DNA from: an uncultured Gammaproteobacteria bacterium
GTDB taxonomy: Bacteria; Patescibacteriota; Patescibacteriia; UBA11705; DATKZF01
DNA length: 64,000 nt
NCBI GenBank assembly: GCA_964411255.1
Contig: CAYPKD010000005.1
Span: 5,547 to 69,546 of the forward strand
Direction: 5' to 3'
Below the pieces are notes generated by a model that did no database searches, had not been told where the DNA came from, and saw only the letters and a list, made by a program, of their open reading frames with translations. This document shows positions 8,836-60,635 of this stretch, one piece after another (the first letter of the stretch is position 1; each line of letters starts with the position of its first letter). The position numbers and the translations under genes were made by a program.

Positions 8836-8853
8836 AAAAGCAATCTTTTTATT

Positions 8854-8999
8854 TAAGAAGGCCTAAGAAGGCACCAGATGGCTTAATAGATAAAGAGGAA
8901 AAGAGGTTGAGAAGGCAAGTATTAAAATTGGAATAGCCTTCTTTTCCCATATGCCTCATTTTCCTATCAATCCCGCTTAAGCCCTATCAAGCCTTCTTT
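8854..8999. repeat. 8-nt-periodic word array, inverted halves (infB 5' leader)
   Basis: TAAGAAGG CCTAAGAA GGCACCAG .. AGAAGGCA, then ..GCCTTCTT-type reverse-complement words. Confidence 0.6.
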
Positions 9000-9022
9000 A
9001 ATAATGAAAGGAGAATATTACC

Positions 9023-11006: not shown

Positions 11007-11038
11007 TAAGGTGGTAGGCCGGTAGGATGGTAGTTTAA
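11007..11038 (+). repeat. TAGNNNGG-type 8-mer array
   Basis: TAAGGTGG TAGGCCGG TAGGATGG TAGTTTAA. Confidence 0.6.
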
Positions 11039-11519: not shown

Positions 11520-12509
11520 ATGACAGATAAAAATACAATTTATGATGTAATAATCATCGGTGCTGGCGCTGCAGGTTTGACAGCAGCCATTTATACTGGC
11601 CGAAGAGAATTGAAAACATTAATTTTGACAAAAGACATTGGCGGCCAGGCTGCGATGACTGATGAAATTGAAAATTGGCCTGGTGAAATTTCTATTTTAG
11701 GACCTGAACTAATGAATAAATTTAAAGCCCAAGCTGAAAAGTGGGGTGCAAAAATTGAATTTGCTGAAATAAAAGAGATTAAAAAAGAAAAAGATTATTT
11801 TGTACTACTTGCAGATGGAAAAGAATATAAAGCATTAACTATAATTTTAGGATTTGGACTTGAGCATAGGAAATTAGGAGTGAGCGGAGAGAAAGAATTT
11901 ACTGGAAAAGGAATATCATATTGCGCCACTTGTGATGGCCCATTATTTCGAGGGAAGACAATTGGTGTGGTTGGCGGAGGTAATTCAGCTTTGGATGCAG
12001 TTGAATATTTAGCAAAGCTGGCGGAAAAGGTTTATATGTTTATTAGAAAAGATACTTTTAGTCCAAATGCAGAGACAGTTCTTGTTGATACAATTCAGAA
12101 TTTGGAAAAACAAGGCAAAGTTGAAGTAATGTGGAACACAGAAGTAAAGGAAATAAAAGGAGAAAAATTAATGAATTCTGTGGAATTTGTTAATAATAAA
12201 ACGAATAAAACACAAGATTTAGAATTAAAGGGTTTATTTATTGAAATTGGCATGGTACCGCAGACAAAAGTGATTGAAGGCCTGGTTGATTTAGATGAAC
12301 GTGGACAAATAGTAATTGATCAGGGATGTAATACCAGCGTGCCTGGCATTTATGCTGCTGGTGATGTAACTATCAGTCCATATAAACAATTGGTCACTTC
12401 TGCTGGGGAAGGTGCAAAAGCAGCTTTATCAGCATATTCTCATATTCAGAAAACTCAGGGTAAAAAAGGCGGAGTTGGGAGTGATTTTACAAAAAAGAAA
12501 ATTATGTAA
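11520..12509 (+). CDS. trxB: Thioredoxin-disulfide reductase
   Basis: GxGxxG FAD motif (IIGAGAAG), CATCDG redox centre, GGGNSA NADPH motif. Confidence 0.93.
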   Translation: MTDKNTIYDVIIIGAGAAGLTAAIYTGRRELKTLILTKDIGGQAAMTDEIENWPGEISILGPELMNKFKAQAEKWGAKIEFAEIKEIKKEKDYFVLLADGKEYKALTIILGFGLEHRKLGVSGEKEFTGKGISYCATCDGPLFRGKTIGVVGGGNSALDAVEYLAKLAEKVYMFIRKDTFSPNAETVLVDTIQNLEKQGKVEVMWNTEVKEIKGEKLMNSVEFVNNKTNKTQDLELKGLFIEIGMVPQTKVIEGLVDLDERGQIVIDQGCNTSVPGIYAAGDVTISPYKQLVTSAGEGAKAALSAYSHIQKTQGKKGGVGSDFTKKKIM

Positions 12510-12620
12510 AAACAGATCAACGGATAGCAACAGATACAACGGAAATCAATTAATATCCGTTTCATCTGTTGTAGATCTGCCAGTCCTGAGCTTGTCGAAG
12601 GGTTGATCCGTTTGAATAAT
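12510..12620 (+). repeat. Shared intergenic hairpin element, copy 1 (abuts the gdh ATG)
   Basis: AACAGATC AACGGATA GCAACAGA TACAACGG.. words and inverted partners. The 3' end GTTGATCCGTTTGAATAAT runs into the ATG. Carries a 30-nt insertion ..GTCCTGAGCTTGTCGAAGG. Confidence 0.75.
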
Positions 12621-36595: not shown

Positions 36596-38023
36596 TTAAA
36601 TAGCATTTTTACCTTTAATCACTGCCCATGGAGTTTTTAATAATATCCAAAAATCAAGTTTTAGCGACCAGTTTTCAATATAGAAAATATCCATTTTTGC
36701 TTCTTCATCAAATGGCAAATCGCTTCGACCACTGATTTGAGCAATACCAGTTATTCCAGGTTTTATATCTAAGGTTCGTAATTGCTCTGGCGTATATCTT
36801 TCAACTTCTCTTGGCTGGTGAGGCCGAGGGCCAACTATGCTCATATTTCCGATAAAGACATTGAAAAATTGAGGCAGCTCATCAATGCTGATTTTTCGGA
36901 TAAATCTGCCAACAGCAGTTACGCGGGGATCTTTTTTTATTTTATATAAAGCACCTCTGGACGCCCCTTGTTCTTTTATTAATTTTTTTTCAAGTTCCAA
37001 TGCTTGTTTACTTGATGGTGCATCTGGCCCTGTACTCATATCCCAATACATTGATCTGAATTTGTATACATTGAATTTTTTTCCATTTTGGCCAACTCTT
37101 TCATTCTTATATATAATTGGCCCTTTTGAATTAATTTTTATGGCAATAGCTGTAAATAGCATTATTGGTGAAGATAAGATTATAAAAATAATTGAACTAA
37201 ATAAATCAGAAAATCTTTTAATAATTTTTTTCCAGCCGTCCAGTGGTGTCTTTTTTATTTCAATTACTGGCAGACCAGCAATCATGTGCGTTTCAATGTT
37301 GGTAGCCCTGGCTTCAAAAGGACCGGCAACATATTTAAAAATAATATGATTATATTTGGCAAAATTGATCAATGAAATTGTATCTTTTCTTGAGATATTT
37401 GGATCAGTTTGAATGATTTCATCAATAAATGTTTTTTTATGAAGAGCTTGAATTTTCATTAATGTGTCTTGATTAAACTGTTCAAAATGTTTGAGAATTT
37501 TTAATCCTAATGAAGGTTGTTTTAAGATTGCATTTTTTACAGCATTAGTATTTGAATTTTTTCCAATAATTATAATTTTATGAGTTCCCCAGCCAGTTTT
37601 ATATAAACTATTTTGAACGATTCTAATTATCATTCTGCCAACAATTATGAAAAGGATGCTGAAAAGCCAGGCAAACAAAATAATAAATCTTGATTCAAAA
37701 AGTTCTCTGACAAAGAACATATATAGAATAATTGCAGTCATGCCAGTAGAGCAGGCTAATATAATCCTGGCCATTTCATCAGTGACTTTTGTTTTTTTAA
37801 ATTTATAAAGAGATGACCAAAAAAAGAAAATCAGCCATATTGCAGCCATTACAATTAGTACACCTAAATATTTATTAAATTCCAGATCAAATACAACCGG
37901 CCTTATTTCAGTAACTGATTCAATAAAACGCAGAGAATAAGCGGTAATACCAGCCAATATTAAAAGAAAGTAGTCAGTGACCAGTTTTATAAGTACAAAT
38001 ATTAATTCTGATTTTTTTATCAT
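36596..38023 (-). CDS. Polyprenyl-phosphate sugar phosphotransferase (WbaP/exopolysaccharide priming enzyme family)
   Basis: Multi-TM N-terminus. C-terminal DELPQFFNV..GNMSIVGPRP and KPGITG motifs (Bac_transf). Confidence 0.9.
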   Translation of the reverse strand: MIKKSELIFVLIKLVTDYFLLILAGITAYSLRFIESVTEIRPVVFDLEFNKYLGVLIVMAAIWLIFFFWSSLYKFKKTKVTDEMARIILACSTGMTAIILYMFFVRELFESRFIILFAWLFSILFIIVGRMIIRIVQNSLYKTGWGTHKIIIIGKNSNTNAVKNAILKQPSLGLKILKHFEQFNQDTLMKIQALHKKTFIDEIIQTDPNISRKDTISLINFAKYNHIIFKYVAGPFEARATNIETHMIAGLPVIEIKKTPLDGWKKIIKRFSDLFSSIIFIILSSPIMLFTAIAIKINSKGPIIYKNERVGQNGKKFNVYKFRSMYWDMSTGPDAPSSKQALELEKKLIKEQGASRGALYKIKKDPRVTAVGRFIRKISIDELPQFFNVFIGNMSIVGPRPHQPREVERYTPEQLRTLDIKPGITGIAQISGRSDLPFDEEAKMDIFYIENWSLKLDFWILLKTPWAVIKGKNAI

Positions 38024-38031
38024 AAATTTGT

Positions 38032-38071
38032 TAGGCTGGTAGATCGGTAGGTTAGTAGGTTGGTAGATTTA
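38032..38071 (+). repeat. TAGNNNGG-type 8-mer array
   Basis: TAGGCTGG TAGATCGG TAGGTTAG TAGGTTGG TAGATTTA. Confidence 0.65.
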
Positions 38072-38151: not shown

Positions 38152-38762
38152 GATCCAAACAGGTCTATAAGCCGAATTCTGTCCCACCAGAGGCGGGGAT
38201 GATCATCTATCTAGTCCCGAGATTACTCTCGGGATCAAGCGAGCTACCAAACTTGCTCTTGCACCAGATAAGGTTTACCACCACCTAATGTTACCATTAG
38301 GCAAGAGAAGTATAAATTAAATAGTCACGTGAACCATTTAACTTTTTTCCTTCTCACTTTTCACCTTTCACCACTGCTACGCAGTGGAATTTCTAAATCC
38401 TAATTTTTTAAACTCTGAACAATTTTCAAATTTTCGAAAGGTTTTAAACATTAGAACATTTGAATTTCGAATTTGTTTAGAATTTCGTATTTCGAATTTA
38501 GCGCTTCCATTGCGCAACAATGGCTAGTATAGTCTCTGTGGCACTGGCTGTCGTCTAGGTTTATTAATTATCCTAGAATCGCCTGGGAGTTACCCAGTAT
38601 CATACCGCAGATTACGCTGATTAGCCGATTACGCAGATTGCAGGACTTTTTTTTATCAGCGTAATCAGCGTAATCTACGGTCAGGTGTTCGGACTTTCCT
38701 CCGGCCTACGCTTTTCACTTTGTTCAAAGCTTCGGCTGGCGATCATCCAACCTATTTGGATC
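38152..38762 (-). ncRNA. rnpB: RNase P RNA (bacterial type A core) with large insertions, about 611 nt
   Basis: Minus strand has GGAGGAAAGTCCGAACAC (CR-I/P4 5'), GTGCCACAGAGAC, GGTAAACC and ACAGAATTCGGCTTATAG (CR-V/P4 3'). P1 pairs GATCCAAATAGGT with ACCTGTTTGGATC; P2 pairs GGATGATC with GATCATCC. Confidence 0.88.
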
Positions 38763-38886: not shown

Positions 38887-39660
38887 ATGAGACGAGTAAG
38901 GCAATTGACATATTTTGTTGTAATTTCGTTTATTCTCATGTATGTCAATGGATGTTCTTTATATTCTGAAAATGATCGTTCTTTTTTAGATGATCAGAAT
39001 AGACAGTCTGCTCGAAGAACAGTTCGTTCAGATGATTCTATAGATCAAAATCCTAATCAGCTAAAGCGGGAAAAGATTATTCAAGTAGCTCAGGCAAAAC
39101 TTTCTTTGGAAGAATTTGCTCAGGCTGAACCTTTGAAAAGATATTGTGATATTACTGGCACCAGCTTTGAAGTAGAAAAGATGCCAGTTACTATTTCTCA
39201 TGCTGGAAGAGAAGTATATGTGGAAACTGAATTAAAGGATTCAACTCTTTTTAAAGAAAATGCAACAAAAGTGCTGGGCTGGTGGAAGCGAAATTACCGG
39301 GTAAGAAAAGTAGAAGATAAGGGTCTGCGCTTGGTCACCATGCTGAAAATTCCAAGAGCAGCCAAATATGATGATGTTGCCAAGGCAATATTTGAATTCT
39401 ATCAAAAGAATTTTCAAAATATTGTTATTTCAGTTATTTGTCGGGAAATGAATAACTGGGCAGTTGATGAATATCCAAATGATTTTTCTGTGGTGATTGA
39501 AAAAAAACAGGAAAATCAGACCCAAAAAGAAGACAAGGCTGCTGCGAAAAAGGCAGCAAGGGCTGCTGCGAGAAGGGCGGCAAGGGCTGCTGCGAGAAAG
39601 GCAGCAAAGGCTGATGCAAAAGAACCAGCCAAACCTCCTGCAAAAAAAGCAGATGAATAA
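38887..39660 (+). CDS. Lipoprotein with Ala/Lys/Arg-rich (histone-H1-like) C-terminal tail
   Basis: SD TAAGGAGGAA. Lipobox YVNGC. Tail is AAAKKAARAAARRAARAAARKAAKADAKEPAKPPAKKADE. Confidence 0.75.
   Translation: MRRVRQLTYFVVISFILMYVNGCSLYSENDRSFLDDQNRQSARRTVRSDDSIDQNPNQLKREKIIQVAQAKLSLEEFAQAEPLKRYCDITGTSFEVEKMPVTISHAGREVYVETELKDSTLFKENATKVLGWWKRNYRVRKVEDKGLRLVTMLKIPRAAKYDDVAKAIFEFYQKNFQNIVISVICREMNNWAVDEYPNDFSVVIEKKQENQTQKEDKAAAKKAARAAARRAARAAARKAAKADAKEPAKPPAKKADE
39538..39633 (+). repeat. 24-nt tandem repeat, about 3.5 copies, in-frame
   Basis: GCTGCTGCGAAAAAGGCAGCAAGG / GCTGCTGCGAGAAGGGCGGCAAGG / GCTGCTGCGAGAAAGGCAGCAAAG, plus a degenerate copy. Confidence 0.85.
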
Positions 39661-41220: not shown

Positions 41221-42198
41221 TTATTTTACTAATCCGATTTGTTCTTTTACCCGTTCCAATGTTTGTGAAGCAACTTTTTGTGCGTTTTCTGCTCCTTTTT
41301 CTAAAATTTTTAAAACCTTTTTATCATCAAGTTCATTTATTTTATCTTGAATAGGATTTAGAAATTCAATAATTTTTTCAGCTAAGTCTTTTTTAAAATT
41401 ACCATAACCTTTGCCTGCATATTTTTTTTCAATTGATTTGATTTCTTCGCCAGTTACTAAGTGGTAAATGGTTAACAGATTGGAAACCGCAGGTTTATCA
41501 TCAGCATATTTTATTTCAGATCCAGAATCAGTGACTGCTTTCATTATTTTTTTGCGAATTAAATCTGGCTGATCTGTTATTGCAATATAATTATATTCTG
41601 AAGCGGCAGATTTGCTCATCTTTTGTGTTGGGTCATCGAGCCCCATCAAGCGGGCACCATGTTCTGGCACAAAAGTTTTCGGTACTTTTAGAGCATCCCC
41701 ATACAAATTATTAAACTTCTTGGCAACTGTTCTGGTTAATTCAACATGCTGCATCTGATCTTCACCTACTGGGACAACATCAGTGTCATAAAGCAAAATA
41801 TCTGCAGCCATTAGTACTGGATAGGTGAAAAGACCGGCATTGATATTTTCCTTATGTTTTTGTGCCTTGTCTTTAAATTGAGTCATCCGCTCTAATTCAG
41901 CAATCGGAGTAATAGTGCTTAGGATCCAGGACAGCTCAGTATGTTCAGATAAATGTGATTGAATAAATAACGTGCATTTTTTTGGATCAAGTCCAGCAGC
42001 AATAAATATTTTTGCCAGATTCAAAGTATTTTGTCTTAATATTTCAGGTTGCTGATAAACTGTTAAGGCATGGAGATCAACTATACAAAAATAAGAATCA
42101 TATTCATTTATGAAGTTAAGCCAGTTTTTTATTGCGCCAAAGTAATTTCCGAGATGAATTATACCGCTTGGCTGGATTCCACTTAAAATTCTTTTCAT
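41221..42198 (-). CDS. trpS: Tryptophan--tRNA ligase
   Basis: GIQPSGIIHLGNY (HIGH-type) and KMSKS signatures, 325 aa. Confidence 0.95.
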   Translation of the reverse strand: MKRILSGIQPSGIIHLGNYFGAIKNWLNFINEYDSYFCIVDLHALTVYQQPEILRQNTLNLAKIFIAAGLDPKKCTLFIQSHLSEHTELSWILSTITPIAELERMTQFKDKAQKHKENINAGLFTYPVLMAADILLYDTDVVPVGEDQMQHVELTRTVAKKFNNLYGDALKVPKTFVPEHGARLMGLDDPTQKMSKSAASEYNYIAITDQPDLIRKKIMKAVTDSGSEIKYADDKPAVSNLLTIYHLVTGEEIKSIEKKYAGKGYGNFKKDLAEKIIEFLNPIQDKINELDDKKVLKILEKGAENAQKVASQTLERVKEQIGLVK

Positions 42199-42205
42199 AT
42201 ATTTT

Positions 42206-42245
42206 TAGATTGGTAGATCGGTAGATTTGTAGATTGGTAGTTAGA
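42206..42245 (+). repeat. TAGNNNGG 8-mer array, left flank of the four-helix-bundle pseudogene
   Basis: TAGATTGG TAGATCGG TAGATTTG TAGATTGG TAGTTAGA. Confidence 0.8.
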
Positions 42246-42246
42246 A

Positions 42247-42629
42247 TTATTTATTATTTAATTCTTTAGTTTTTGAATTTGTCATTTTATTCAACATTCG
42301 CATGACTTCATTTAATAAATTATCAACTTTTAAAAAATTTAATTTTTTTCCAAATGGTAGACGATTGGCAATTTCTATTTGAGTTTCTAATTCTGCCCCG
42401 GAAGCATATGCTACTATTAAAAAGTGACGATATTCTTTTATTGTTAGTCGTTTTTTTCCTTCAGCGATATTCGAGGGGATAGATATAGCTGTTTTTCGTG
42501 TATGTTGAATTAATCCAAATGATTCAATTTTCGGATATTATTCTGTTAATTCATAGACCGCGACAACTAAATCCATTGCTTTTTGCCAAACAATTAATTT
42601 CCGGTAATCCCCAGGTTGATTAATTTCAT
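42247..42629 (-). pseudogene. Four-helix-bundle protein (23S rRNA intervening-sequence protein family), disrupted
   Basis: ..YRKLIVWQKAMDLVVAVYELTE*YPKIESFGLIQHTRKTAISIPSNIAEGKKR..YASGAELETQIEIA. In-frame TAA at 42538-42540, plus a frame offset between the ATG (42629) and the conserved frame. Confidence 0.75.
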
Positions 42630-42673
42630 TTTAAAATAATTTCCCATGTACTTTTATCCTATCATTTAAATCT

Positions 42674-42713
42674 CTACTGATCTACCAATCTACCGCCCTA
42701 CCGAACTAACTTA
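42674..42713 (+). repeat. Inverted partner array (CCNNNCTA words), right flank of the pseudogene
   Basis: CTACTGAT CTACCAAT CTACCGCC CTACCGAA CTAACTTA, the reverse complement of the TAGNNNGG family. Confidence 0.8.
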
Positions 42714-44444
42714 TTAAATTTCAATAACTACAGGCAAGACCATTGGTCTTCTTTTAGTTTTCTTAAATAAGAATGAGCCTACTTCATTTCGTAGCCTATT
42801 TTTTATGTTATTTGGATCTGACGGGCATTTTGGATTTTTATCTTTGATAATTTTTCGGACAAGGCTGCGGGCGTTTTCAACTAATTCCCGGCTTTCTTTC
42901 ATATATATAAATCCTCTGGAAATAATGTCCGGACTTCCGATTAATTCTCCGGTTTTTCGGCTAATAGTGGCAATGACCACAAACATGCCATCTTCTGACA
43001 TCTGCCTTCTGTCTCTTAACACAATATTACTGATATCGCCGACACCCAGTCCATCAACCATTACGTATTCGGTTGGTACTCGTTTTTTTGTCAAGGTACC
43101 TCTTGCTGTTTTGCCGCGCTTTGTAAATTCAATAATTTGTCCATTATCAGCAATAAAAATATTAGATGCAGGAATGCCCATACTTTCTGCTACCTCTGCA
43201 TTTCCGCGTAACATAAAATGATTGGCTTCAATCGGGATGTAGTATTGTGGTTTTAGCAATCTGATAAGCATTTTTACATCTTCTTGTTTGGCATGTCCGC
43301 CAGCATGAACGTCCATTAGCTTATTATGAAATAATTTTGCTCCCTGGCGGGTTAGCGTGTCTTTAAGGCTTTGAATTGTTCGTTCATTACCTGGAATTAC
43401 TGAAGACGAAAATATAACAGTGTCGCCTTTTGCAATACTTAAAAATCGATGATCATTATTTGCAATTCTCATTAGAACAGCATTATTTTCGCCTTGAGCA
43501 CCTGTTCCAATAACCACTTGTTTGTTTGCAGGCAGTCGCAAAAACGGTCCTTGTTCGACAATTGTACCAGGCTTAATTTTTAAATAACCTAATTTATGAG
43601 CAATTTCAACATTAGAAACCATACTCCGGCCATCTAAATAAACTTTTTTGCCATATCTTTCAGATATGCTGATTAATTGCTGCACTCGATTTAGTGACGA
43701 GGCAAATGTCCCGACAATAATTCTACCCGGAGCCACTTTGAAAATTTTATCAATATCTTCGCCAACTGTACTTTCAGATATTTGATAACCCGGCTGCATG
43801 GCGTTTGTACTGTCAGACATTAAAGCCAATACTCCGCTTGCTCCTATTTGTGCAATTCTGTTTAAATCAGCAGGTTTATCATTGACTGGATTAAAGTCGA
43901 TTTTAAAGTCACCTGTATGAACAATATTTCCGACAGGGGAGTTAATAACGACTCCAAAACTGTCCGGAATGTTATGATTAACCCTGAAAAAGTTGACTCG
44001 GAGTTTCCCAAGCTGGATATTGTCTTTTTCCGGATCAATAATCTGAATGTTTAGTTTTTGAGTTTTGAATTCCTCATGCCGTTTTTGGATCATTCCTGCC
44101 GTTAGTTTTGCAGTGTAAATTGGTGGGAAGCTAAGCTTTGGCATTAAGTATGAAATTGCACCAATATGGTCAAGGTGACCATGAGTGATAATTACACCTT
44201 TAATTTTTTTGAGCTTGTCTTCCAGGTAAGTGATGTCTGGGATAATAAAATCAATACCAGGCATGTGTTCTTCTGGAAATTGAAGTCCCATATCGATTAA
44301 GACAATGTCATTGCCATATTCGATCAGGGTCATGTTCCGGCCGACTTCTTCCAGTCCGCCTAAAACAATGATTTTTAGTTTGTTAGAAGATTCTCTGCTA
44401 GTCCATTTTCGTCTAACAGGTCTTTTTGTTTGTTTTCGAATCAT
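42714..44444 (-). CDS. rnj: Ribonuclease J
   Basis: Metallo-beta-lactamase HGHLDHIG, beta-CASP and C-terminal domain, 576 aa. Confidence 0.92.
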   Translation of the reverse strand: MIRKQTKRPVRRKWTSRESSNKLKIIVLGGLEEVGRNMTLIEYGNDIVLIDMGLQFPEEHMPGIDFIIPDITYLEDKLKKIKGVIITHGHLDHIGAISYLMPKLSFPPIYTAKLTAGMIQKRHEEFKTQKLNIQIIDPEKDNIQLGKLRVNFFRVNHNIPDSFGVVINSPVGNIVHTGDFKIDFNPVNDKPADLNRIAQIGASGVLALMSDSTNAMQPGYQISESTVGEDIDKIFKVAPGRIIVGTFASSLNRVQQLISISERYGKKVYLDGRSMVSNVEIAHKLGYLKIKPGTIVEQGPFLRLPANKQVVIGTGAQGENNAVLMRIANNDHRFLSIAKGDTVIFSSSVIPGNERTIQSLKDTLTRQGAKLFHNKLMDVHAGGHAKQEDVKMLIRLLKPQYYIPIEANHFMLRGNAEVAESMGIPASNIFIADNGQIIEFTKRGKTARGTLTKKRVPTEYVMVDGLGVGDISNIVLRDRRQMSEDGMFVVIATISRKTGELIGSPDIISRGFIYMKESRELVENARSLVRKIIKDKNPKCPSDPNNIKNRLRNEVGSFLFKKTKRRPMVLPVVIEI

Positions 44445-48438: not shown

Positions 48439-49539
48439 ATGAGAAAAAACATTGAGGGATCAGAAGCAATAGCTGAGGTGGTTAAATTAATACAACCAGA
48501 AGTGGTAGCCACTTTTCCAATTACACCTCAGACTCATATAATAGAACATCTGGCTAAATATAAAGCAGATGGTGAGGTTGGTTTTGAATATATAAAAACT
48601 GAAAGTGAGTTTGCAGCAGCCTCAGTTGTTTTGGGTGCCAGCGCGATGGGGGTACGGGTATACACCGCTTCCAGCTCACAAGGATTGCTTTTAATGGGCG
48701 AGGTTTTATATGACATTGCTGGCATGAGATTGCCCGTGGTTATAACTGCAGCTAATAGGGCGATTTCCGCGCCATTAAATATTTGGAATGACCATCAGGA
48801 TGTAATGCCTTTTCGTGATGCTGGCTGGATAATGCTTTTTGCTGAGACTAATCAGGAGGCGATGGATCTGCATCTTTTGGCTTTCAAGTTGGCTGAAAAA
48901 TTATCGCTCCCAGCAATGGTTTGCATGGATGGTTTTGTCTTAACCCACACTTATGAGCCGGTTGACATTCCAAAGTTAAGCGAAGTTAAAAAGTTTTTAC
49001 CTAAATACAGGCCAAAGAAAAATACATATTTAGATGTGATTAATCCGGTTAGCCTGGGTTGTTTTGCCACCCCAGCTGATTATCAGGAAATAAGACTGGA
49101 ATTACATGAGGATTTATTAAAATCAAAAAATCTATTCATTCAGGAAGCAAAGAAATTTAAAAAGATTTTTAAACGGAATTTAAATATTATTGATTATTAC
49201 GGCCCAAAAAATGCAAAAACTGTAATTGTCGCGATGGGAGCAGCTTTAGGCACCATTAAAGAAGCTGCAGATCAGTTAAATGAAAAAGGATCAAAGGTGG
49301 GAGTATTAAAAATATCAATGCTGCGGCCTTTTCCAAAAATGGAAATAAAACATTTATTAAAAGATAAAAAAAACGTGATTGTTCTGGATCGGGCAATATC
49401 ACTGGGTTCTGGTGGTATATTATATAATGAGGTTAGAAATGCTTTATGCAATACCAATGCCAAGGTTAGCGGAGCAGTAAACGGCTTGGGTGGAAGGGAT
49501 ATTACAATTGATTTTATTAAAAAACTTATTGTAGCGTGA
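48439..49539 (+). CDS. porA: 2-oxoacid:ferredoxin oxidoreductase alpha subunit
   Basis: GSEAIAE..ATFPITPQT N-terminus. Start moved to ATG 48439. Confidence 0.9.
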   Translation: MRKNIEGSEAIAEVVKLIQPEVVATFPITPQTHIIEHLAKYKADGEVGFEYIKTESEFAAASVVLGASAMGVRVYTASSSQGLLLMGEVLYDIAGMRLPVVITAANRAISAPLNIWNDHQDVMPFRDAGWIMLFAETNQEAMDLHLLAFKLAEKLSLPAMVCMDGFVLTHTYEPVDIPKLSEVKKFLPKYRPKKNTYLDVINPVSLGCFATPADYQEIRLELHEDLLKSKNLFIQEAKKFKKIFKRNLNIIDYYGPKNAKTVIVAMGAALGTIKEAADQLNEKGSKVGVLKISMLRPFPKMEIKHLLKDKKNVIVLDRAISLGSGGILYNEVRNALCNTNAKVSGAVNGLGGRDITIDFIKKLIVA

Positions 49540-49556
49540 TAATTTTGAGAATTGGA

Positions 49557-49633
49557 GGTTACGGAATTACGGAAGGTTACTGATATTACGGATATCCGTA
49601 GTATCCGTAATAATCAGTAAATCCGTAATCCCT
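49557..49633. repeat. 8-nt-periodic array with central inversion (TTACGGA words, then TCCGTAA words)
   Basis: GTTACGGA ATTACGGA AGGTTACT GATATTAC GGAT|ATCC GTAGTATC CGTAATAA TCAGTAAA TCCGTAAT. Centre at 49593/49594. Confidence 0.8.
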
Positions 49634-49640
49634 AATAAAT

Positions 49641-52118
49641 ATGAAAAAAATAATATTACTTACAATTCTTCTGGCATTAATTTGCACGTCTTTTTTAGTT
49701 GCTGCCAAGGTTAGTGCGTTTGAGCCTTTGGAAGAATTAATTCCAAGAATGAAAATCCCGATCCCGCAGCTTGAACCATTTCAAAAGCCTACTTATGTGG
49801 AAGAAGGAGGCAAGGGCTATATTTTCATTCCATGGATAGCCCAATATGTAAGTGCAATGTATAAATATGCTTTGGCTATTGGATCAATCATTGCTGTGAT
49901 TGCAGTTATGGTAGGAGGAATTTTATATTTAACCTCTGGCGGTGCGCCTGGCAGAATAGATCAGGGTAAAAATATTATTATTGGTGCTATTACCGGACTT
50001 TTAATTATAATTTTTTCTTATATCTTTTTAAATACAATTAATCCTGAACTGGTGAATCTTAAGGCTATTAGAATTCAAGCTGTAAAACAAGAAGCATTAG
50101 TGGTTGGAAATAATTGTAAGGATTTGGGAGCTGGATTTATAGTCAGAACTCCAAGCGGAGAAAAAGAAGGAACAACAGGTAATGCCCAGTATTTTGCATG
50201 CGGCAGTTCATATCCAGTAAGGTCAGGGGCAGCAGATGTGATTGTTCCCGAAGGTCAGAATTGCGATGGGGCGTATTGCCAAAAGGGTGCTTGCGAGACT
50301 GTTGATGGTAAACCACAGTGTGTGAATGCTTTGTTTACAGGAGAAATTACAGGAACGATGTTGTCCGGAGGAAGATATATTGATGAAGAATTTGAGCTTT
50401 GGGGCATGCCGGGAAATGGTCTTCTCGCAGCATTTCCAGTTCCATCTAAAGGACGATATGTTATTCCTTTAACAGCTGAATTAGAAAACAAACTAAATCT
50501 TGTAGACAAAGTGTATTTTCATCTACAGATAAATACCACAGGTGCTTATCCTTATTGGGCCTATAAAATTGGAAAGGAAGGAGTTGTTGATGTGGATTTG
50601 ATAAAAGAAACGGTAAAAAGTTATTTTAAAACTACAATAGATAGTGAATTTTATGCAGTAAAAAGTTATAAGGATCCAGAAAAAGCAATATGGGGATTCC
50701 CATACTCTCTAGATCAGATGTCCCCACTCAATCCTAGTTATGGTAATACCCCTTGTGATCCATGTTTTGTGATGCCTAGGAACGCTGAATGGCGATTTGA
50801 ACAGAGATTGCCTTGGTGTCAATTTTGGGAACCGACTGATCTTTTAGTAGCAGCAAAAAGTGGATCTGGAACAGTTGTAAATTTTAATATTGATGATTTT
50901 CCAGAATATCCTCAGTGGCCTCCACCGGTTCTAGTAAAAGAACTTCTATTAGATAATATTTCTGGATTACCTACGCCTGAATTTTTAAAGGGTGTTAAAT
51001 ACGAAGATATAGATTGGAATAATTTGGCTACAATCAATCCAGATTTATATCCTTATATGACTGATCCTGCTGAATTTTGTGTGGCTTCGAGTCAGTTAAC
51101 ATCTGCCTCTCCATTTCCTGGGACTCCATGTACTAGTCCGTTTGAGACAGCATTTGTTGCAGCTGATGATGCGAATGCGCCAGATGATTTAAAGGGGAAA
51201 ACATTATATTGTCGGCCTGCTGGTTATCAAGTCGGTTCAGGCACAGCAGTAGCAAAGTTTGAATGGACATTGGAAGATGCTAGGAAAGGAGATACGTGTG
51301 ATAATTTAAGTGTTGCTCAGAGTTTTCCAGGACAATTTTCAGCTGGACAAACAGCAAAAAACGATGGACAGCCATTTGTTAATTGTGAATCTGGCGTTAG
51401 TTGCCAATGGGTTAGCGGTGATGTAGGAGAATGTATAAATGGTTTAACATATTGTTTTGGGTTTTGTGAAGATGATGAAGCAGTATTGTCTATGGGAATT
51501 GGAGATCCATGCAGAGATGGCACCTGCCTTCCATATAAAGGATCAATAGAATTAAAATGCGTTTTAAATGGAAATGCCAGGGAATGTTTATTAGGCACAT
51601 GGGGATCATTTTGCAATACTGATAACGACTGTAAAGACGGTTTTGAATGTATTAAGCATGACACTACAACTACTGATGAAGTTCAATTTTGTGCAAAAAA
51701 GAATGCAGGAAGATGGCAGGCATGTGGAGATAAAATTAGCGGTAGTGGTACGAATTGTTCTTCTGGATTGGATTGTGAGCAAGTAGAATACGGAGAAGAA
51801 GGTGATAGTGACGCACAGTGTGATACAGGCCATTGGTCTGGAGCAGATACTAATAATTTGAAATTTTGTCTTGAAAGTACTTATGATGATAATAATCATG
51901 GGATCTGCTCCTGTTCAAATAATAGTAATTGTGCCAATACTTATGGTTGGGATTCTGGTGCAAATTATTGTAATTTAGCAGGTTATGAATATTGTTCTCA
52001 AAAAGTTGAAGGCGCATGGTGTAAAGTAGAGGGAAAAACAACACCAGACAATTATTTTTGCCATGGTGTAGGAGGTGAGTATGGAGTTTTACATCAAAAG
52101 ATTTCAACTAGTCAATAA
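49641..52118 (+). CDS. 825-aa secreted/membrane protein: T4SS-pilin-like (TrbC/VirB2-type) N-terminal module plus large Cys-rich ectodomain
   Basis: Signal peptide. IPWIAQYV..GGILYLTSGGAPGRIDQGKNIIIGAITGLLIIIFSYIFLNTINP. About 40 Cys counted by eye in the C-terminal 680 aa. Confidence 0.8.
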   Translation: MKKIILLTILLALICTSFLVAAKVSAFEPLEELIPRMKIPIPQLEPFQKPTYVEEGGKGYIFIPWIAQYVSAMYKYALAIGSIIAVIAVMVGGILYLTSGGAPGRIDQGKNIIIGAITGLLIIIFSYIFLNTINPELVNLKAIRIQAVKQEALVVGNNCKDLGAGFIVRTPSGEKEGTTGNAQYFACGSSYPVRSGAADVIVPEGQNCDGAYCQKGACETVDGKPQCVNALFTGEITGTMLSGGRYIDEEFELWGMPGNGLLAAFPVPSKGRYVIPLTAELENKLNLVDKVYFHLQINTTGAYPYWAYKIGKEGVVDVDLIKETVKSYFKTTIDSEFYAVKSYKDPEKAIWGFPYSLDQMSPLNPSYGNTPCDPCFVMPRNAEWRFEQRLPWCQFWEPTDLLVAAKSGSGTVVNFNIDDFPEYPQWPPPVLVKELLLDNISGLPTPEFLKGVKYEDIDWNNLATINPDLYPYMTDPAEFCVASSQLTSASPFPGTPCTSPFETAFVAADDANAPDDLKGKTLYCRPAGYQVGSGTAVAKFEWTLEDARKGDTCDNLSVAQSFPGQFSAGQTAKNDGQPFVNCESGVSCQWVSGDVGECINGLTYCFGFCEDDEAVLSMGIGDPCRDGTCLPYKGSIELKCVLNGNARECLLGTWGSFCNTDNDCKDGFECIKHDTTTTDEVQFCAKKNAGRWQACGDKISGSGTNCSSGLDCEQVEYGEEGDSDAQCDTGHWSGADTNNLKFCLESTYDDNNHGICSCSNNSNCANTYGWDSGANYCNLAGYEYCSQKVEGAWCKVEGKTTPDNYFCHGVGGEYGVLHQKISTSQ

Positions 52119-58374: not shown

Positions 58375-58923
58375 TTATGTAAATATGATTTTCTCACATT
58401 CTAACATTGTTTGATCTATTTTATTTTCTTTATTATATACACTGTAATCTGCCTGAGAAGCCAGTTTAAGCTCTTTTGGTATGAAGCTTTTTCTTTTTTC
58501 AAATATCTCTTTTGGCAGATTTCTTTTTTTAAGCCTTTTTTCAATATTTTCCGGCTTGGCAGTTAAAAATATTTTTGAAATGAAATCCTTTTTATATTCT
58601 TTTTTATTAATTGACAAAGGATCAATGGTGGTGATAGCAATTTTACCTTGCTGCCAGATTTTTTCAAGTTCAGGCATTGGTTTTCCATAATAATTTCCAT
58701 AAACTTGTTCCCATTCAATTAAATTGTGCTGCGCAATTAATTTTTTAAAATCTTTTTCAGTTAAAAAAATATATTCACCGCTTGTTTCATCTTTTTTTCT
58801 TGGTAGTCTGGTAGTGTAGGTGATTAGGCGCTTAATTTTATCAGAATGTTTTTCTAAAATTTTATTAACGATTGTAGTTTTTCCTACACCAGACGGTCCT
58901 GAAAAAATTATTAATTTATTCAT
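58375..58923 (-). CDS. gmk: Guanylate kinase
   Basis: P-loop GPSGVGKTT, TTRLPRKKDE..G..Y.F motif. Confidence 0.9.
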   Translation of the reverse strand: MNKLIIFSGPSGVGKTTIVNKILEKHSDKIKRLITYTTRLPRKKDETSGEYIFLTEKDFKKLIAQHNLIEWEQVYGNYYGKPMPELEKIWQQGKIAITTIDPLSINKKEYKKDFISKIFLTAKPENIEKRLKKRNLPKEIFEKRKSFIPKELKLASQADYSVYNKENKIDQTMLECEKIIFT

Positions 58924-58994
58924 ATATATAGAAAGCTTAATGGGCTTGATAAGGCTTAAGAAGGTAAAGAGGGCAATTTCATTGCTTCATTATT

Positions 58995-59034
58995 TAACAT
59001 ATAATAACATCATAACCTCGTAACTTCATAACTT
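58995..59034 (+). repeat. 8-nt-periodic word array (CATAACNN)
   Basis: TAACATAT AATAACAT CATAACCT CGTAACTT CATAACTT. Confidence 0.75.
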
Positions 59035-59036
59035 TT

Positions 59037-60635
59037 TTATCTCTTTTTACCTTTTTTCTTCTTTTTCCTAGATTCAATAATCTGTTTTTCTTGATCCAAA
59101 ATTTCTTGCTTATGATTTTGAAGATATTTCATTGCCTGTTTTTTTGAATTTATTTCTCCATTTAGCCAAGCATCCTGAACTGCTGTTAAAGCTAAGCCAA
59201 AATAAATTCCCCCACGTCTTTCAAAAAATATTTCATTAATATCATCACTTGAAAGAATGGTCTTTGGTAATTTTTGCTCTTGCCTTGCTTCAATTCTCTT
59301 CCTTACTTTTTCAATTTTGGTCATCAGCTCATCATAACGCTTAGTATTTGGCTGGCCATCAGATTTAATTGAGCTTAATGAATCTAAATAGGTAAGCATT
59401 AATAATTCATTGCCATGTTTTCCGAAAAAAGCATTTTCAATATCTTTAAAAGAAAATTGTCCTGGATCTTCCAGCAGATTTCTTATTAAAAAAGTGATTT
59501 CCTTAATTTGCTTATTGGAAAATTTTAAACGACGAGTGATTTTTTCAGACAGTTGAGCGCTTTGCTCGTTAGGATGTTTAAATTTGATTTTTTCATCTCC
59601 ATCTTCAATTACAATTTCCTGTGATTTTGGTTTCCCAATTTGCGAAAGCATAATAGCGACAGTAAATTCTGGAGATATTTTGGCATTTGGGAATTTTGAT
59701 TTGAATTCTGGAGAATTGATTTTTTCCAGCATTAATTTAGTATGCTGCCAGACATCTCCTTCCTGATGAGATTCAGCTGGTTGAGTGCAATTTTTGAGTT
59801 TATTTAATTCAGGAATAATCTGCTGCCAGAGACTTGCTTTATCATATAAATCAAAAGCGCGTTCTGAATTTTCTTTAAGGCTTTTTAATAATTCTTTTCT
59901 AATGGTGTCTTCTGGTACTTTTCTTTCTTTTTTACCTTTTTCACCCACCACAGTATCATTGATGTGCTGGGCATTTTCAATAATTGCTTTCCAGGTATTT
60001 TTTTCAATTTGAAAATCAAACCGGCAGGCAAAGCGGATAGCGCGCAGCATCCTGGAATAATCTTCTTTGAATCTGTCTTCAGGTTTGCCAACAGCACGGA
60101 TAAGCTTGTTTTCTAAATCTTTTTTTCCATCATAAGGATCAACCAATTTTCCTTCTCTGACATCATAGGCCATGGCATTTATAGTCAAATCCCTTCGGCC
60201 CAAATCTTCTTCGACCGGCATGTTTGGATCAGACTGAACTTCAAAATCTTTTTTGCCACCGCCGCCAGTTGAAAATTCTGTGCGTGGAAAAGCAATATCA
60301 ATTGGTTCATCTAAACTTTTGTCTTCTGGCATGAATTTATAAACGCCAAAATGCTTTCCAACCAGATCTAAGCTGCCCTTTTCTTCAGTTAAAGCCTTTT
60401 CAAGGTCCTGGCCAGATATTTTTCTAAATATAAAATCAAAATCTTTTGATTTAAGCTTGTCTAAAAGGGTATCGCGCACAATTCCACCGACCATGTACAT
60501 TTCCAAATTTTCAAGATTAGGGTTGGTAATAAAATCATCTAAAAATCGCTTGACAGCTGGTTCAGTTAATATTCTTTTTCGCAGCTTGTCTTCTGGAGCC
60601 TCTTCCTTTAGTAATATTTTTTCAAAAAATTTCAT
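59037..60635 (-). CDS. cca: CCA-adding enzyme / poly(A) polymerase-family tRNA nucleotidyltransferase
   Basis: MVGGIVRDTLLD..KDFDF head-domain motif, RDLTINAMA, C-terminal extension. Confidence 0.8.
   Translation of the reverse strand: MKFFEKILLKEEAPEDKLRKRILTEPAVKRFLDDFITNPNLENLEMYMVGGIVRDTLLDKLKSKDFDFIFRKISGQDLEKALTEEKGSLDLVGKHFGVYKFMPEDKSLDEPIDIAFPRTEFSTGGGGKKDFEVQSDPNMPVEEDLGRRDLTINAMAYDVREGKLVDPYDGKKDLENKLIRAVGKPEDRFKEDYSRMLRAIRFACRFDFQIEKNTWKAIIENAQHINDTVVGEKGKKERKVPEDTIRKELLKSLKENSERAFDLYDKASLWQQIIPELNKLKNCTQPAESHQEGDVWQHTKLMLEKINSPEFKSKFPNAKISPEFTVAIMLSQIGKPKSQEIVIEDGDEKIKFKHPNEQSAQLSEKITRRLKFSNKQIKEITFLIRNLLEDPGQFSFKDIENAFFGKHGNELLMLTYLDSLSSIKSDGQPNTKRYDELMTKIEKVRKRIEARQEQKLPKTILSSDDINEIFFERRGGIYFGLALTAVQDAWLNGEINSKKQAMKYLQNHKQEILDQEKQIIESRKKKKKGKKR

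Follow-up and report, generated by a model that had tools for sequence, protein, structure and literature searches.

The spacer between the RNase J gene (rnj) and trpS in the 64-kb stretch of DNA analysed here (the window) probably harbours, on balance, an insertion cassette of the type found in rRNA intervening sequences (IVSs), in which a gene for a four-helix-bundle protein is enclosed by inverted arrays (arms) of the octamer TAGRNNGG, each about 35-40 nt long and acting as an RNA stem. The two components of this statement are of different strength. That gene and arms together are an inserted unit of a widespread family is very probable on the comparative evidence, while for the function of the arms as an RNA stem cut by RNase III, which is proposed by analogy, we regard the chances as evenly balanced. 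A cassette of this kind had been suggested in a preliminary description of the window, and is supported by empty and filled sites in relatives, by other bracketed copies, and by the 23S IVS of Coxiella, which is made of the same parts.

The spacer (42199-42713, 515 nt) separates two genes of the minus strand and consists of three parts, i.e. arm, gene and arm. The upstream host gene is rnj (42714..44444, minus strand), a 576-aa ORF with the Pfam domains RNase_J_b_CASP, RNase_J_C and Lactamase_B, whose TAA stop codon (42714-42716) abuts the G-rich 5' arm. In the sense of transcription this arm (42674..42713, minus strand) reads TAAGTTAG TTCGGTAG GGCGGTAG ATTGGTAG ATCAGTAG, with TAG each 8 nt, and a homologous arm is found by alignment in two relatives, L086 and L087. 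The 3' arm (42206..42245, minus strand) reads TCTAACTA CCAATCTA CAAATCTA CCGATCTA CCAATCTA in the same sense; it is C-rich and G-poor, with (C)CNATCTA repeated five times, and was recorded by TRF as 4.4 copies of period 8 (score 56). It ends 7 nt before the ATG (42196-42198) of the downstream host gene trpS (41221..42198, minus strand; 325-aa ORF, Pfam tRNA-synt_1b, 252.9 bits), and no Shine-Dalgarno-like sequence could be read between arm and ATG. On the plus strand, the two segments are TAGATTGG TAGATCGG TAGATTTG TAGATTGG TAGTTAGA (42206-42245) and CTACTGAT CTACCAAT CTACCGCC CTACCGAA CTAACTTA (42674-42713). Both are arrays of TAGRNNGG in inverted orientation, the outermost unit being degenerate in each, and their position and content as brackets of the spacer are those reported in the preliminary description.

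Four runs of three or more GTAG or CTAC motifs spaced exactly 8 nt apart were counted in the window, compared with 0.0 in simulation (50 first-order Markov sequences per motif); besides the two arms, they are the arrays at 11007-11038 and 38032-38071. A repeat search returned the arms as an inverted repeat of 36 nt (42205-42240 versus 42674-42709), 81% complementary and 433 nt apart, and in the minimum-energy folds predicted for both strands the arms are paired with each other. The complementarity by itself is modestly unusual, with a best ungapped score of 22 against 15.1 +/- 3.2 (maximum 26) in simulation. Because inverted complementarity alone is modest for a spacer as AT-rich as this one (the G+C content of the window is 35%), the case rests on the comparative data and on the periodic arrays at both ends, which are the strong signal over chance. 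Among other functions considered for the spacer, a promoter or a terminator within the cassette was rejected, since nothing exceeded expectation: the minus strand of the spacer has no predicted intrinsic terminator, and fewer promoter-like sites than expected were seen in the spacer. A CRISPR array was also rejected, because the units are 8 nt long and follow each other head to tail without spacers, as against repeats of about 24-40 nt with unique spacers.

The gene enclosed by the arms (42247..42647, minus strand; terminal TAA at 42247-42249) is, on profile scores and alignment with intact relatives, a pseudogene of the four-helix-bundle family and a decayed member of the cassette. With the nonsense codon replaced by K, the minus-strand translation scored 108.4 bits against PF05635 (Pfam 23S_rRNA_IVP; cut-off 33.8, profile positions 1-106) and 97.5 bits against TIGR02436, 'four helix bundle protein' (cut-off 24), so that the homologue recognized earlier between the arrays is indeed a clear one. 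The two lesions read from the sequence at that time, an in-frame TAA and a frame offset after the ATG, were both recovered in the alignment with intact relatives. The nonsense TAA lies at 42538-42540, where the intact genes have GGA or CAA, and a 1-nt deletion is located near 42631-42633, downstream of the ancestral ATG (42645-42647), in the alignment with two intact relatives; with these two lesions the ORF is no longer intact. Five metagenome contigs from public samples carry an identical trpS, and in four of them, obtained from different samples, the spacer with both lesions is identical, while the fifth starts inside the spacer. The lesions are therefore not sequencing errors. Since the spacer is identical in the contigs that span it, there is no variation in array copy number among these close strains, and no further copies of the gene were found within the window.

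The intact orthologue P0001 was modelled by AF2 (pLDDT 87.8) as four long helices, and matched 2GSC in Foldseek with an E value of 4.7e-7, an rmsd of 1.7 A, a TMq of about 0.8 and 42-43% identity. On this model it has the four-helix-bundle fold of Xcc0516, and resembles in this respect Avd (4DWL, 8UB7) as well as Xcc0516 and BT_0352 (2GSC and 2RLD). That the pseudogene is a decayed avd, left behind by a diversity-generating retroelement (DGR), is nevertheless barely credible: the structural similarity to Avd (TM about 0.7) and a weak similarity to the Avd model would agree with it, but the score against that NCBIfam model (NF033474) is 21-23 bits with a cut-off of 80, no reverse transcriptase and no template/variable repeat pair is adjacent, and the neighbours are rnj and trpS, which are also the neighbours of the intact orthologous cassette in L086. 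The identification with Avd was rejected on model score and context. We know of no function for four-helix-bundle proteins outside DGRs.

The conservation of the subfamily is unusually high, with 60-84% identity across proteins named as those of Falkowbacteria, Magasanikbacteria, Collierbacteria, Liptonbacteria and Kuenenbacteria, and with the motifs S-x-P-S-N-I-x-E-G and E-L-E-T-Q invariant in the alignment. The trpS of this organism, by comparison, has no matches between 81% and 58% identity. Either strong constraint or horizontal spread of the cassette is indicated by these figures. To judge by the names of its nearest four-helix-bundle homologues, the organism probably belongs to Patescibacteria.

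Relatives were located through similarity to trpS, and intact homologues through similarity to the pseudogene. The site is empty in L006 (trpS 83% identical) and L008 (81%), where the rnj stop is followed by 36-38 nt and then by the trpS ATG, and neither spacer contains GTAG arrays or a gene remnant. It is filled in L086, where the intact P0001 (84% identical to the pseudogene) lies between the end of rnj and trpS, preceded by GTAG x4 and followed by CTAC x3-4. In L087, an intact gene (P0002, 80% identical) with the same arms occupies another site, with a DUF2090 gene upstream and an uncharacterised gene downstream, and in L089 (Falkowbacteria) a gene with 71% identity, which precedes that of a class I tRNA synthetase, has arms of period 7 (GTAGGNN x4 and CTACNNC x5). 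The octamer cassettes of the window, L086 and L087 align end to end, arms included. Compared in this way, empty and filled sites show the gene and its arms to be present or absent as one unit, in keeping with the insertion proposed at the outset.

Neither hallmark of a transposon or MITE, i.e. target-site duplication and transposase, was found at the cassette: no target-site duplication is visible by comparison with the empty sites of L006 and L008, and no transposase or other mobility enzyme was seen next to it, although an enzyme acting in trans would still be possible. It should be noted that the 'empty' spacers (L008, 134-169; L006, 3549-3586) are G-poor and partly periodic themselves (CTTACTT CTTGCTT CTTACTT in L008), so that trpS may have a solo C-rich array before it even where the cassette is absent. 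Before trpS, no Shine-Dalgarno-like sequence was found in the genes of L006 and L008, as in the window.

The survey of the family covered 80 loci from species-representative genomes, chosen solely by two peptide motifs of the protein. About 20 of them are from Patescibacteria by title, and the rest are from Acidobacteriota, Bacteroidota, Planctomycetota, Proteobacteria, Clostridia and others, with one Methanophagales archaeon. On each side of the gene, the 110 nt outside the start or stop codon were inspected, and arrays were counted on the 76 loci with full flanks. Upstream and downstream flanks were inverted-complementary (score of at least 12) in 44 of the 80 loci, as against 2 of 80 cross-locus pairings. 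The duplex energy of the 110-nt flanks was dropped as a test because it was too unspecific (median -51.6 kcal/mol versus -37.4 cross-locus, with 75 of 79 controls also passing -25 kcal/mol). A short tandem array was present on at least one side in 71/76 loci and on both sides in 38/76. The expectation that family genes are always bracketed thus goes too far, since bracketing on both sides is clear in only those 38. The bracketing of other copies as such is borne out by the same cassette at its different site in L087, by the heptamer arms of L089, and by most of the 80 loci.

Within the sampled loci, 253 control ORFs had an array upstream in 39 cases, downstream in 39 and on both sides in 15, so that arrays on both sides characterize 50% of the loci and 6% of the controls. 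These figures bear on the idea that the arrays are neutral products of slippage, common in the spacers of this genome and placed around the gene by coincidence. Many spacers of the window do contain short tandem repeats and repeat-built hairpins, and 15% of control flanks in the sampled loci also have arrays. Coincidence does not readily produce two inverted arms of one unit family, with homologous arms in L086 and L087, the excess of two-sided arrays over controls, the marked polarity described below, or a layout that recurs across phyla and in viral contigs; the comparative data already contradict this explanation, which we regard as extremely improbable.

The period was 7 in 89 of 109 arrays, upstream and downstream being counted separately, and 8 in 13, so the octamer of this window is a minority form. 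Although the repeat unit differs among lineages, a YAG core (TAG or CAG) with a 4-5-nt spacer is present in 51/67 unit consensuses. The number of copies per arm ranges from 2 to 14 (median 4.4), while the span of the arm is about 28-31 nt at period 7, 8 or 9 alike, which fits a constraint on stem length more than a fixed number of units. The upstream arm contains more G than C in 52 of 58 loci (p = 3e-10). The neighbouring genes are co-directional upstream in 64/77 and downstream in 59/80 loci, and the median gaps to them (51 nt upstream, 33 nt downstream) are largely filled by the arms. Taken together, the loci show a cassette with a fixed polarity relative to co-directional neighbours, recurring at other sites with lineage-specific repeats in many phyla and, from the flanks of further copies, on cyanobacterial plasmids and viral contigs. 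A role of the arrays as stop codons in all three frames was considered and set aside: TAG units with a period of 7 or 8, such as those of the window, do provide such stops, but CAG, GGACGGT and GGCGGGC units do not.

In seven Patescibacteria loci (L099, L103, L104, L108, L112, L121 and L133), the gene that immediately follows the cassette is the same and encodes a small membrane protein (MQFKVPQF...) of the Pfam PrgI family, with scores of 43.6-46.9 bits for the two loci that were scanned. The insertion may thus be old and retained, or the site may be a preferred one.

The cyanobacterial plasmid copies have the same flanks, built of heptamers, and the same flanks surround the four-helix-bundle gene on viral contigs from IMG/VR. 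The downstream arms of L183 and L184, two of these contigs that are nearly identical, contain 3 and 4 CCTACTC units, respectively, which is direct evidence that copy number changes by slippage, as has been reported between Coxiella strains. On plasmid NZ_CP016476.1 of Picosynechococcus sp. PCC 7003 (L175, 126543-126899), the gene, with inverted arms of GGAGATA type, lies between cas10/cmr2 and cmr3 in a type III-B operon. An association of the four-helix-bundle family with cas loci has been reported (PMC3936711, PMC10910872), and may reflect insertions like this one, not a CRISPR function.

The family PF05635 owes its name to ORFs inside 23S rRNA IVSs, and the link to these elements drawn in the preliminary description proved to be real. 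A Leptospira 23S IVS with an S23p/PF05635 ORF is attributed to Ralph and McClelland (1993) in the citation given by PMC3936711. The 23S IVS of Coxiella burnetii (Warrier et al.; PMC4990558) contains an S23p ORF of this family, has a 28-bp terminal stem, and carries GACAGAT heptamers in tandem in the stretch that separates the ORF from the end of the stem; strains vary in the number of these heptamers, the first of which is the site of cleavage by RNase III in vitro, and the ORF is decaying. ORF-bearing 23S IVSs have tandem repeats of variable copy number in the arm upstream of an ORF that is often decaying, and are deemed selfish. The cassette of the window shares with them the protein family, the terminal inverted repeats able to form a long stem, the tandem repeats upstream of the ORF and the decay of the ORF. 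Unlike them, it is inserted between two protein-coding genes, rnj and trpS, and not in an rRNA helix (RNase P RNA is the only Rfam match in the window), and its period is 8, not 7. Excision by RNase III has been shown for the Coxiella IVS only.

According to the mechanism that we propose, rnj, the cassette and trpS would be transcribed together, and the G-rich arm after the rnj stop would pair with the C-rich arm before the trpS start. The resulting stem would be imperfect and roughly 30 bp long, the gene occupying its loop and the stop and start codons of the host genes its base. A stem of such length is a standard substrate of RNase III. By analogy with the rRNA IVS of Coxiella, the double-stranded RNA would be of the kind that this enzyme cuts, and the insert would thereby be tolerated inside an operon or an rRNA without wrecking it. 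In addition, a ribosome terminating at the rnj stop could unwind the base of the stem and free the trpS start. Pairing of the arms as RNA is favoured by the rRNA precedent, by the constancy of arm length across periods (about 2.5-3 turns of duplex RNA), by the lack of a predicted minus-strand terminator and of any excess of promoter-like sites in the spacer, and by the geometry that places stop and start codons at the stem base.

Some observations count against the stem or are left aside by it. The tandem-repeat nature of the arms and the YAG core common to different phyla are not explained by the stem, and solo arrays, such as that at 38032 in the window and the TAACTGA sets of Beggiatoaceae, have no partner array for pairing. 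Moreover, G:U asymmetry as a sign of sense-strand RNA pairing gave no signal: of 244 arm mismatches in 58 loci, 64 would become G:U pairs if the sense strand were the RNA and 56 if it were the antisense strand (p = 0.52), and in the arms of the window it is the antisense strand that gains more G:U pairs (3 versus 1). Given that no sense bias is seen, the complementarity may just as well be maintained in DNA, or simply be young. The stem would be compatible with a function of the arms as DNA and with recognition of the repeats by a pentamer of the protein.

The first of these possibilities can be extended to a full alternative, in which the arms act on DNA as terminal inverted repeats, as recombination sites, or as sites bound by a host protein or by the protein that the cassette encodes, and the unit is moved or maintained as a DNA element, comparable with REP sequences and RAYT or with foldback elements having tandem-repeat inverted ends. 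RAYT is an HUH transposase, usually encoded by a single-copy gene, and REPs and REPINs are short repeats scattered as intergenic hairpins. The cassette resembles these systems and foldback elements in that a gene is flanked by a short repeat in inverted orientation, and gene-less copies of the repeat are dispersed elsewhere as hairpins. In 7 of 57 loci, gene-less hairpins of the cassette's own unit lie no further than 2.5 kb from it, and with those of this window they could be likened to non-autonomous copies. Unlike REPs, however, the arms are tandem arrays and not single palindromes, and, unlike for RAYT, we know of no catalytic role for the four-helix-bundle protein.

A case that was read at the DNA level is Geobacter metallireducens, in which 24, 21 and 8 pairs of inverted tandem octa-, nona- and heptanucleotide arrays, 53 in all, are found between adjacent genes and were interpreted as DNA sites for unidentified global regulators similar to IHF or HU, with IS110 and IS481 elements at fixed distances from some of the arrays (PMC2700814). 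Like the cassette arms, these arrays are tandem, lie on opposite strands between adjacent genes (e.g. nifD/nifK and proB/proA), and have 3-5 units spanning about 27-35 nt, but they were described without any link to a four-helix-bundle gene (PMC2700814). The missing G:U bias and the existence of both filled and empty sites would also suit an element acting as DNA. On the other hand, such an element would not be expected to keep a fixed polarity to transcription, as the arrays do, including the solo arrays of the window and the TAACTGA repeats of Beggiatoaceae (PMC4679880), and the lack of target-site duplication and of an adjacent transposase, the wide variation of repeat units between lineages whose proteins are still 60-84% identical, and the arms that demonstrably form an RNA stem in rRNA (PMC4990558) speak against it. 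We consider action on DNA rather unlikely as the main role of the arms.

The repeats could also be read by the protein as RNA. The solved relatives Xcc0516, BT_0352 and Avd (2GSC, 2RLD, 4DWL) have five chains per entry in all three cases, and by analogy the four-helix-bundle protein probably forms a pentamer. HutP reads UAG-N4 repeats, and TRAP reads GAG/UAG repeats. In their manner, a pentamer might bind one YAG triplet per subunit, with (UAGAUUGG)4-5 RNA as the candidate ligand, and in competing with stem formation would control its own synthesis and the downstream gene. The YAG core and 4-5-nt spacer shared across phyla and the median of 4.4 copies per arm agree with this proposal, as do the description of Xcc0516 as 'five four-helix bundles', which is taken from the reference list of PMC3936711, and the binding of RNA by the homologue Avd in the DGR ribonucleoprotein (8UB7). 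It is the length of the arm in nucleotides that is constant over periods 7, 8 and 9, however, and not the copy number (4x8, 3x9 and 5x7 in Geobacter), which varies from 2 to 14; on these grounds one repeat per protein subunit was rejected. The arrays also persist in the window although the gene is dead, and the complementary second arm is left unexplained. As a general account of the arrays, RNA sites for the protein appear distinctly improbable.

Arrays without a gene occur in this window and elsewhere, and the two sites for which membership in the same array family had been suggested, near rnpB (38032) and after infB (11007), were both found. The first is a solo array (38032..38071, minus strand), C-rich in the sense of transcription, situated between a terminator-like hairpin that follows the RNase P RNA and a sugar transferase gene, whose ATG is at 38023; the hairpin has a z score of -3.4, and the array is unpaired in the fold. 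The second (11007..11038, plus strand) reads TAAGGTGG TAGGCCGG TAGGATGG TAGTTTAA and lies directly after the infB stop. Weak pairing is possible between it and a degenerate CTAC/CTATT stretch that leads into a T-run, but the predicted fold (-18.7 kcal/mol, z -1.5) is not significant. The solo arrays of the window keep the polarity of the cassette arms, being G-rich after stop codons and C-rich before start codons.

Strand-specific arrays of this kind recall the STRR of cyanobacteria and the TAACTGA heptamers found just upstream of start codons in Beggiatoaceae and some cyanobacteria (PMC4679880). These, too, are heptamers repeated in tandem within spacers, and the last unit often comes to within a few nt of a start codon; the reverse complement of TAACTGA, TCAGTTA, carries the CAG core seen in cassette units. 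Unlike the cassette, they were described as direct repeats with neither a partner array nor an enclosed gene. The period of the window is 8 and its host is not a cyanobacterium, although most homologous cassettes have period 7 and the cyanobacterial plasmid copies are flanked by heptamers; from these few plasmid loci, we infer a link of STRR and TAACTGA repeats to PF05635.

To our knowledge, PF05635 is among the commonest uncharacterised families of small bacterial proteins, its function having been open since 1993. The wider pattern looks under-described: no paper on a general link between PF05635 genes and flanking inverted arrays was found in a search that covered subscription journals thinly, so an earlier description is possible. 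We tentatively put forward, as a doubtful but not negligible idea, that the gene and its inverted YAG-heptad or -octad arms make up a single, so far unnamed and very widespread class of intergenic cassette in bacteria, some archaea and viruses, which would be the common origin of ORF-bearing rRNA IVSs, the cyanobacterial STRR, the TAACTGA repeats of Beggiatoaceae and the paired sites of Geobacter. The pentameric protein would then be a trans-acting factor that binds, spreads or maintains the arrays, gene-less copies included, like RAYT for REPINs. If gene and arrays are one unit, the STRR, TAACTGA and Geobacter arrays, so far puzzled over separately, would have one explanation, and the reported associations with cas genes could be due to nothing more than insertion among them, as in Picosynechococcus. 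The function could then be tested on a specific protein and a specific ligand of 30 nt. The arms would also represent a natural means of placing a gene harmlessly in an operon or rRNA, which would be of practical interest for insulating inserted genes.

Other repeats in the window were noted in passing. The RNase P RNA (38152-38758, minus strand; 139.6 bits) is 607 nt long, compared with 367 nt for the model, and the extra length includes repeat-built hairpins, with 9-mers GATTACGC[AT] at 38606-38639 facing their complement at 38655-38675, and with ATTTCGA 7-mers at 38458-38499. These repeats recall the STRR heptamers in the RNase P RNA genes of heterocystous cyanobacteria (cited in PMC2858038). 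At 49554-49632 (plus strand), a single hairpin (-39 kcal/mol) makes up the whole spacer between a stop at 49539 and an ATG at 49641; its arms are TTACGGAA x4 and TCCGTAAT x4, the G-rich one first, i.e. the layout of the cassette with a different unit and no gene in the loop. Directly after the stop at 12509, two copies of ACAGAT..AACGGA face their complement (12511-12580, plus strand), and GAAGTTAT x4 (minus sense) follows the stop of the gene 59037-60635 at 59004-59034 (minus strand). A C-rich motif, CTTAAGCC..TATCAAGCC, lies just upstream of two starts, those of infB (about 8850-9000, plus strand) and of the gene 58375-58923 (58925-58965, minus strand), and at infB it pairs in the predicted fold with an upstream stretch of TAAGAAGGCC x2. 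Finally, a 24-nt tandem repeat (39524-39653, plus strand; 5.4 copies, 75% matches) lies inside the ORF 38887-39660 and presumably encodes an 8-residue protein repeat.
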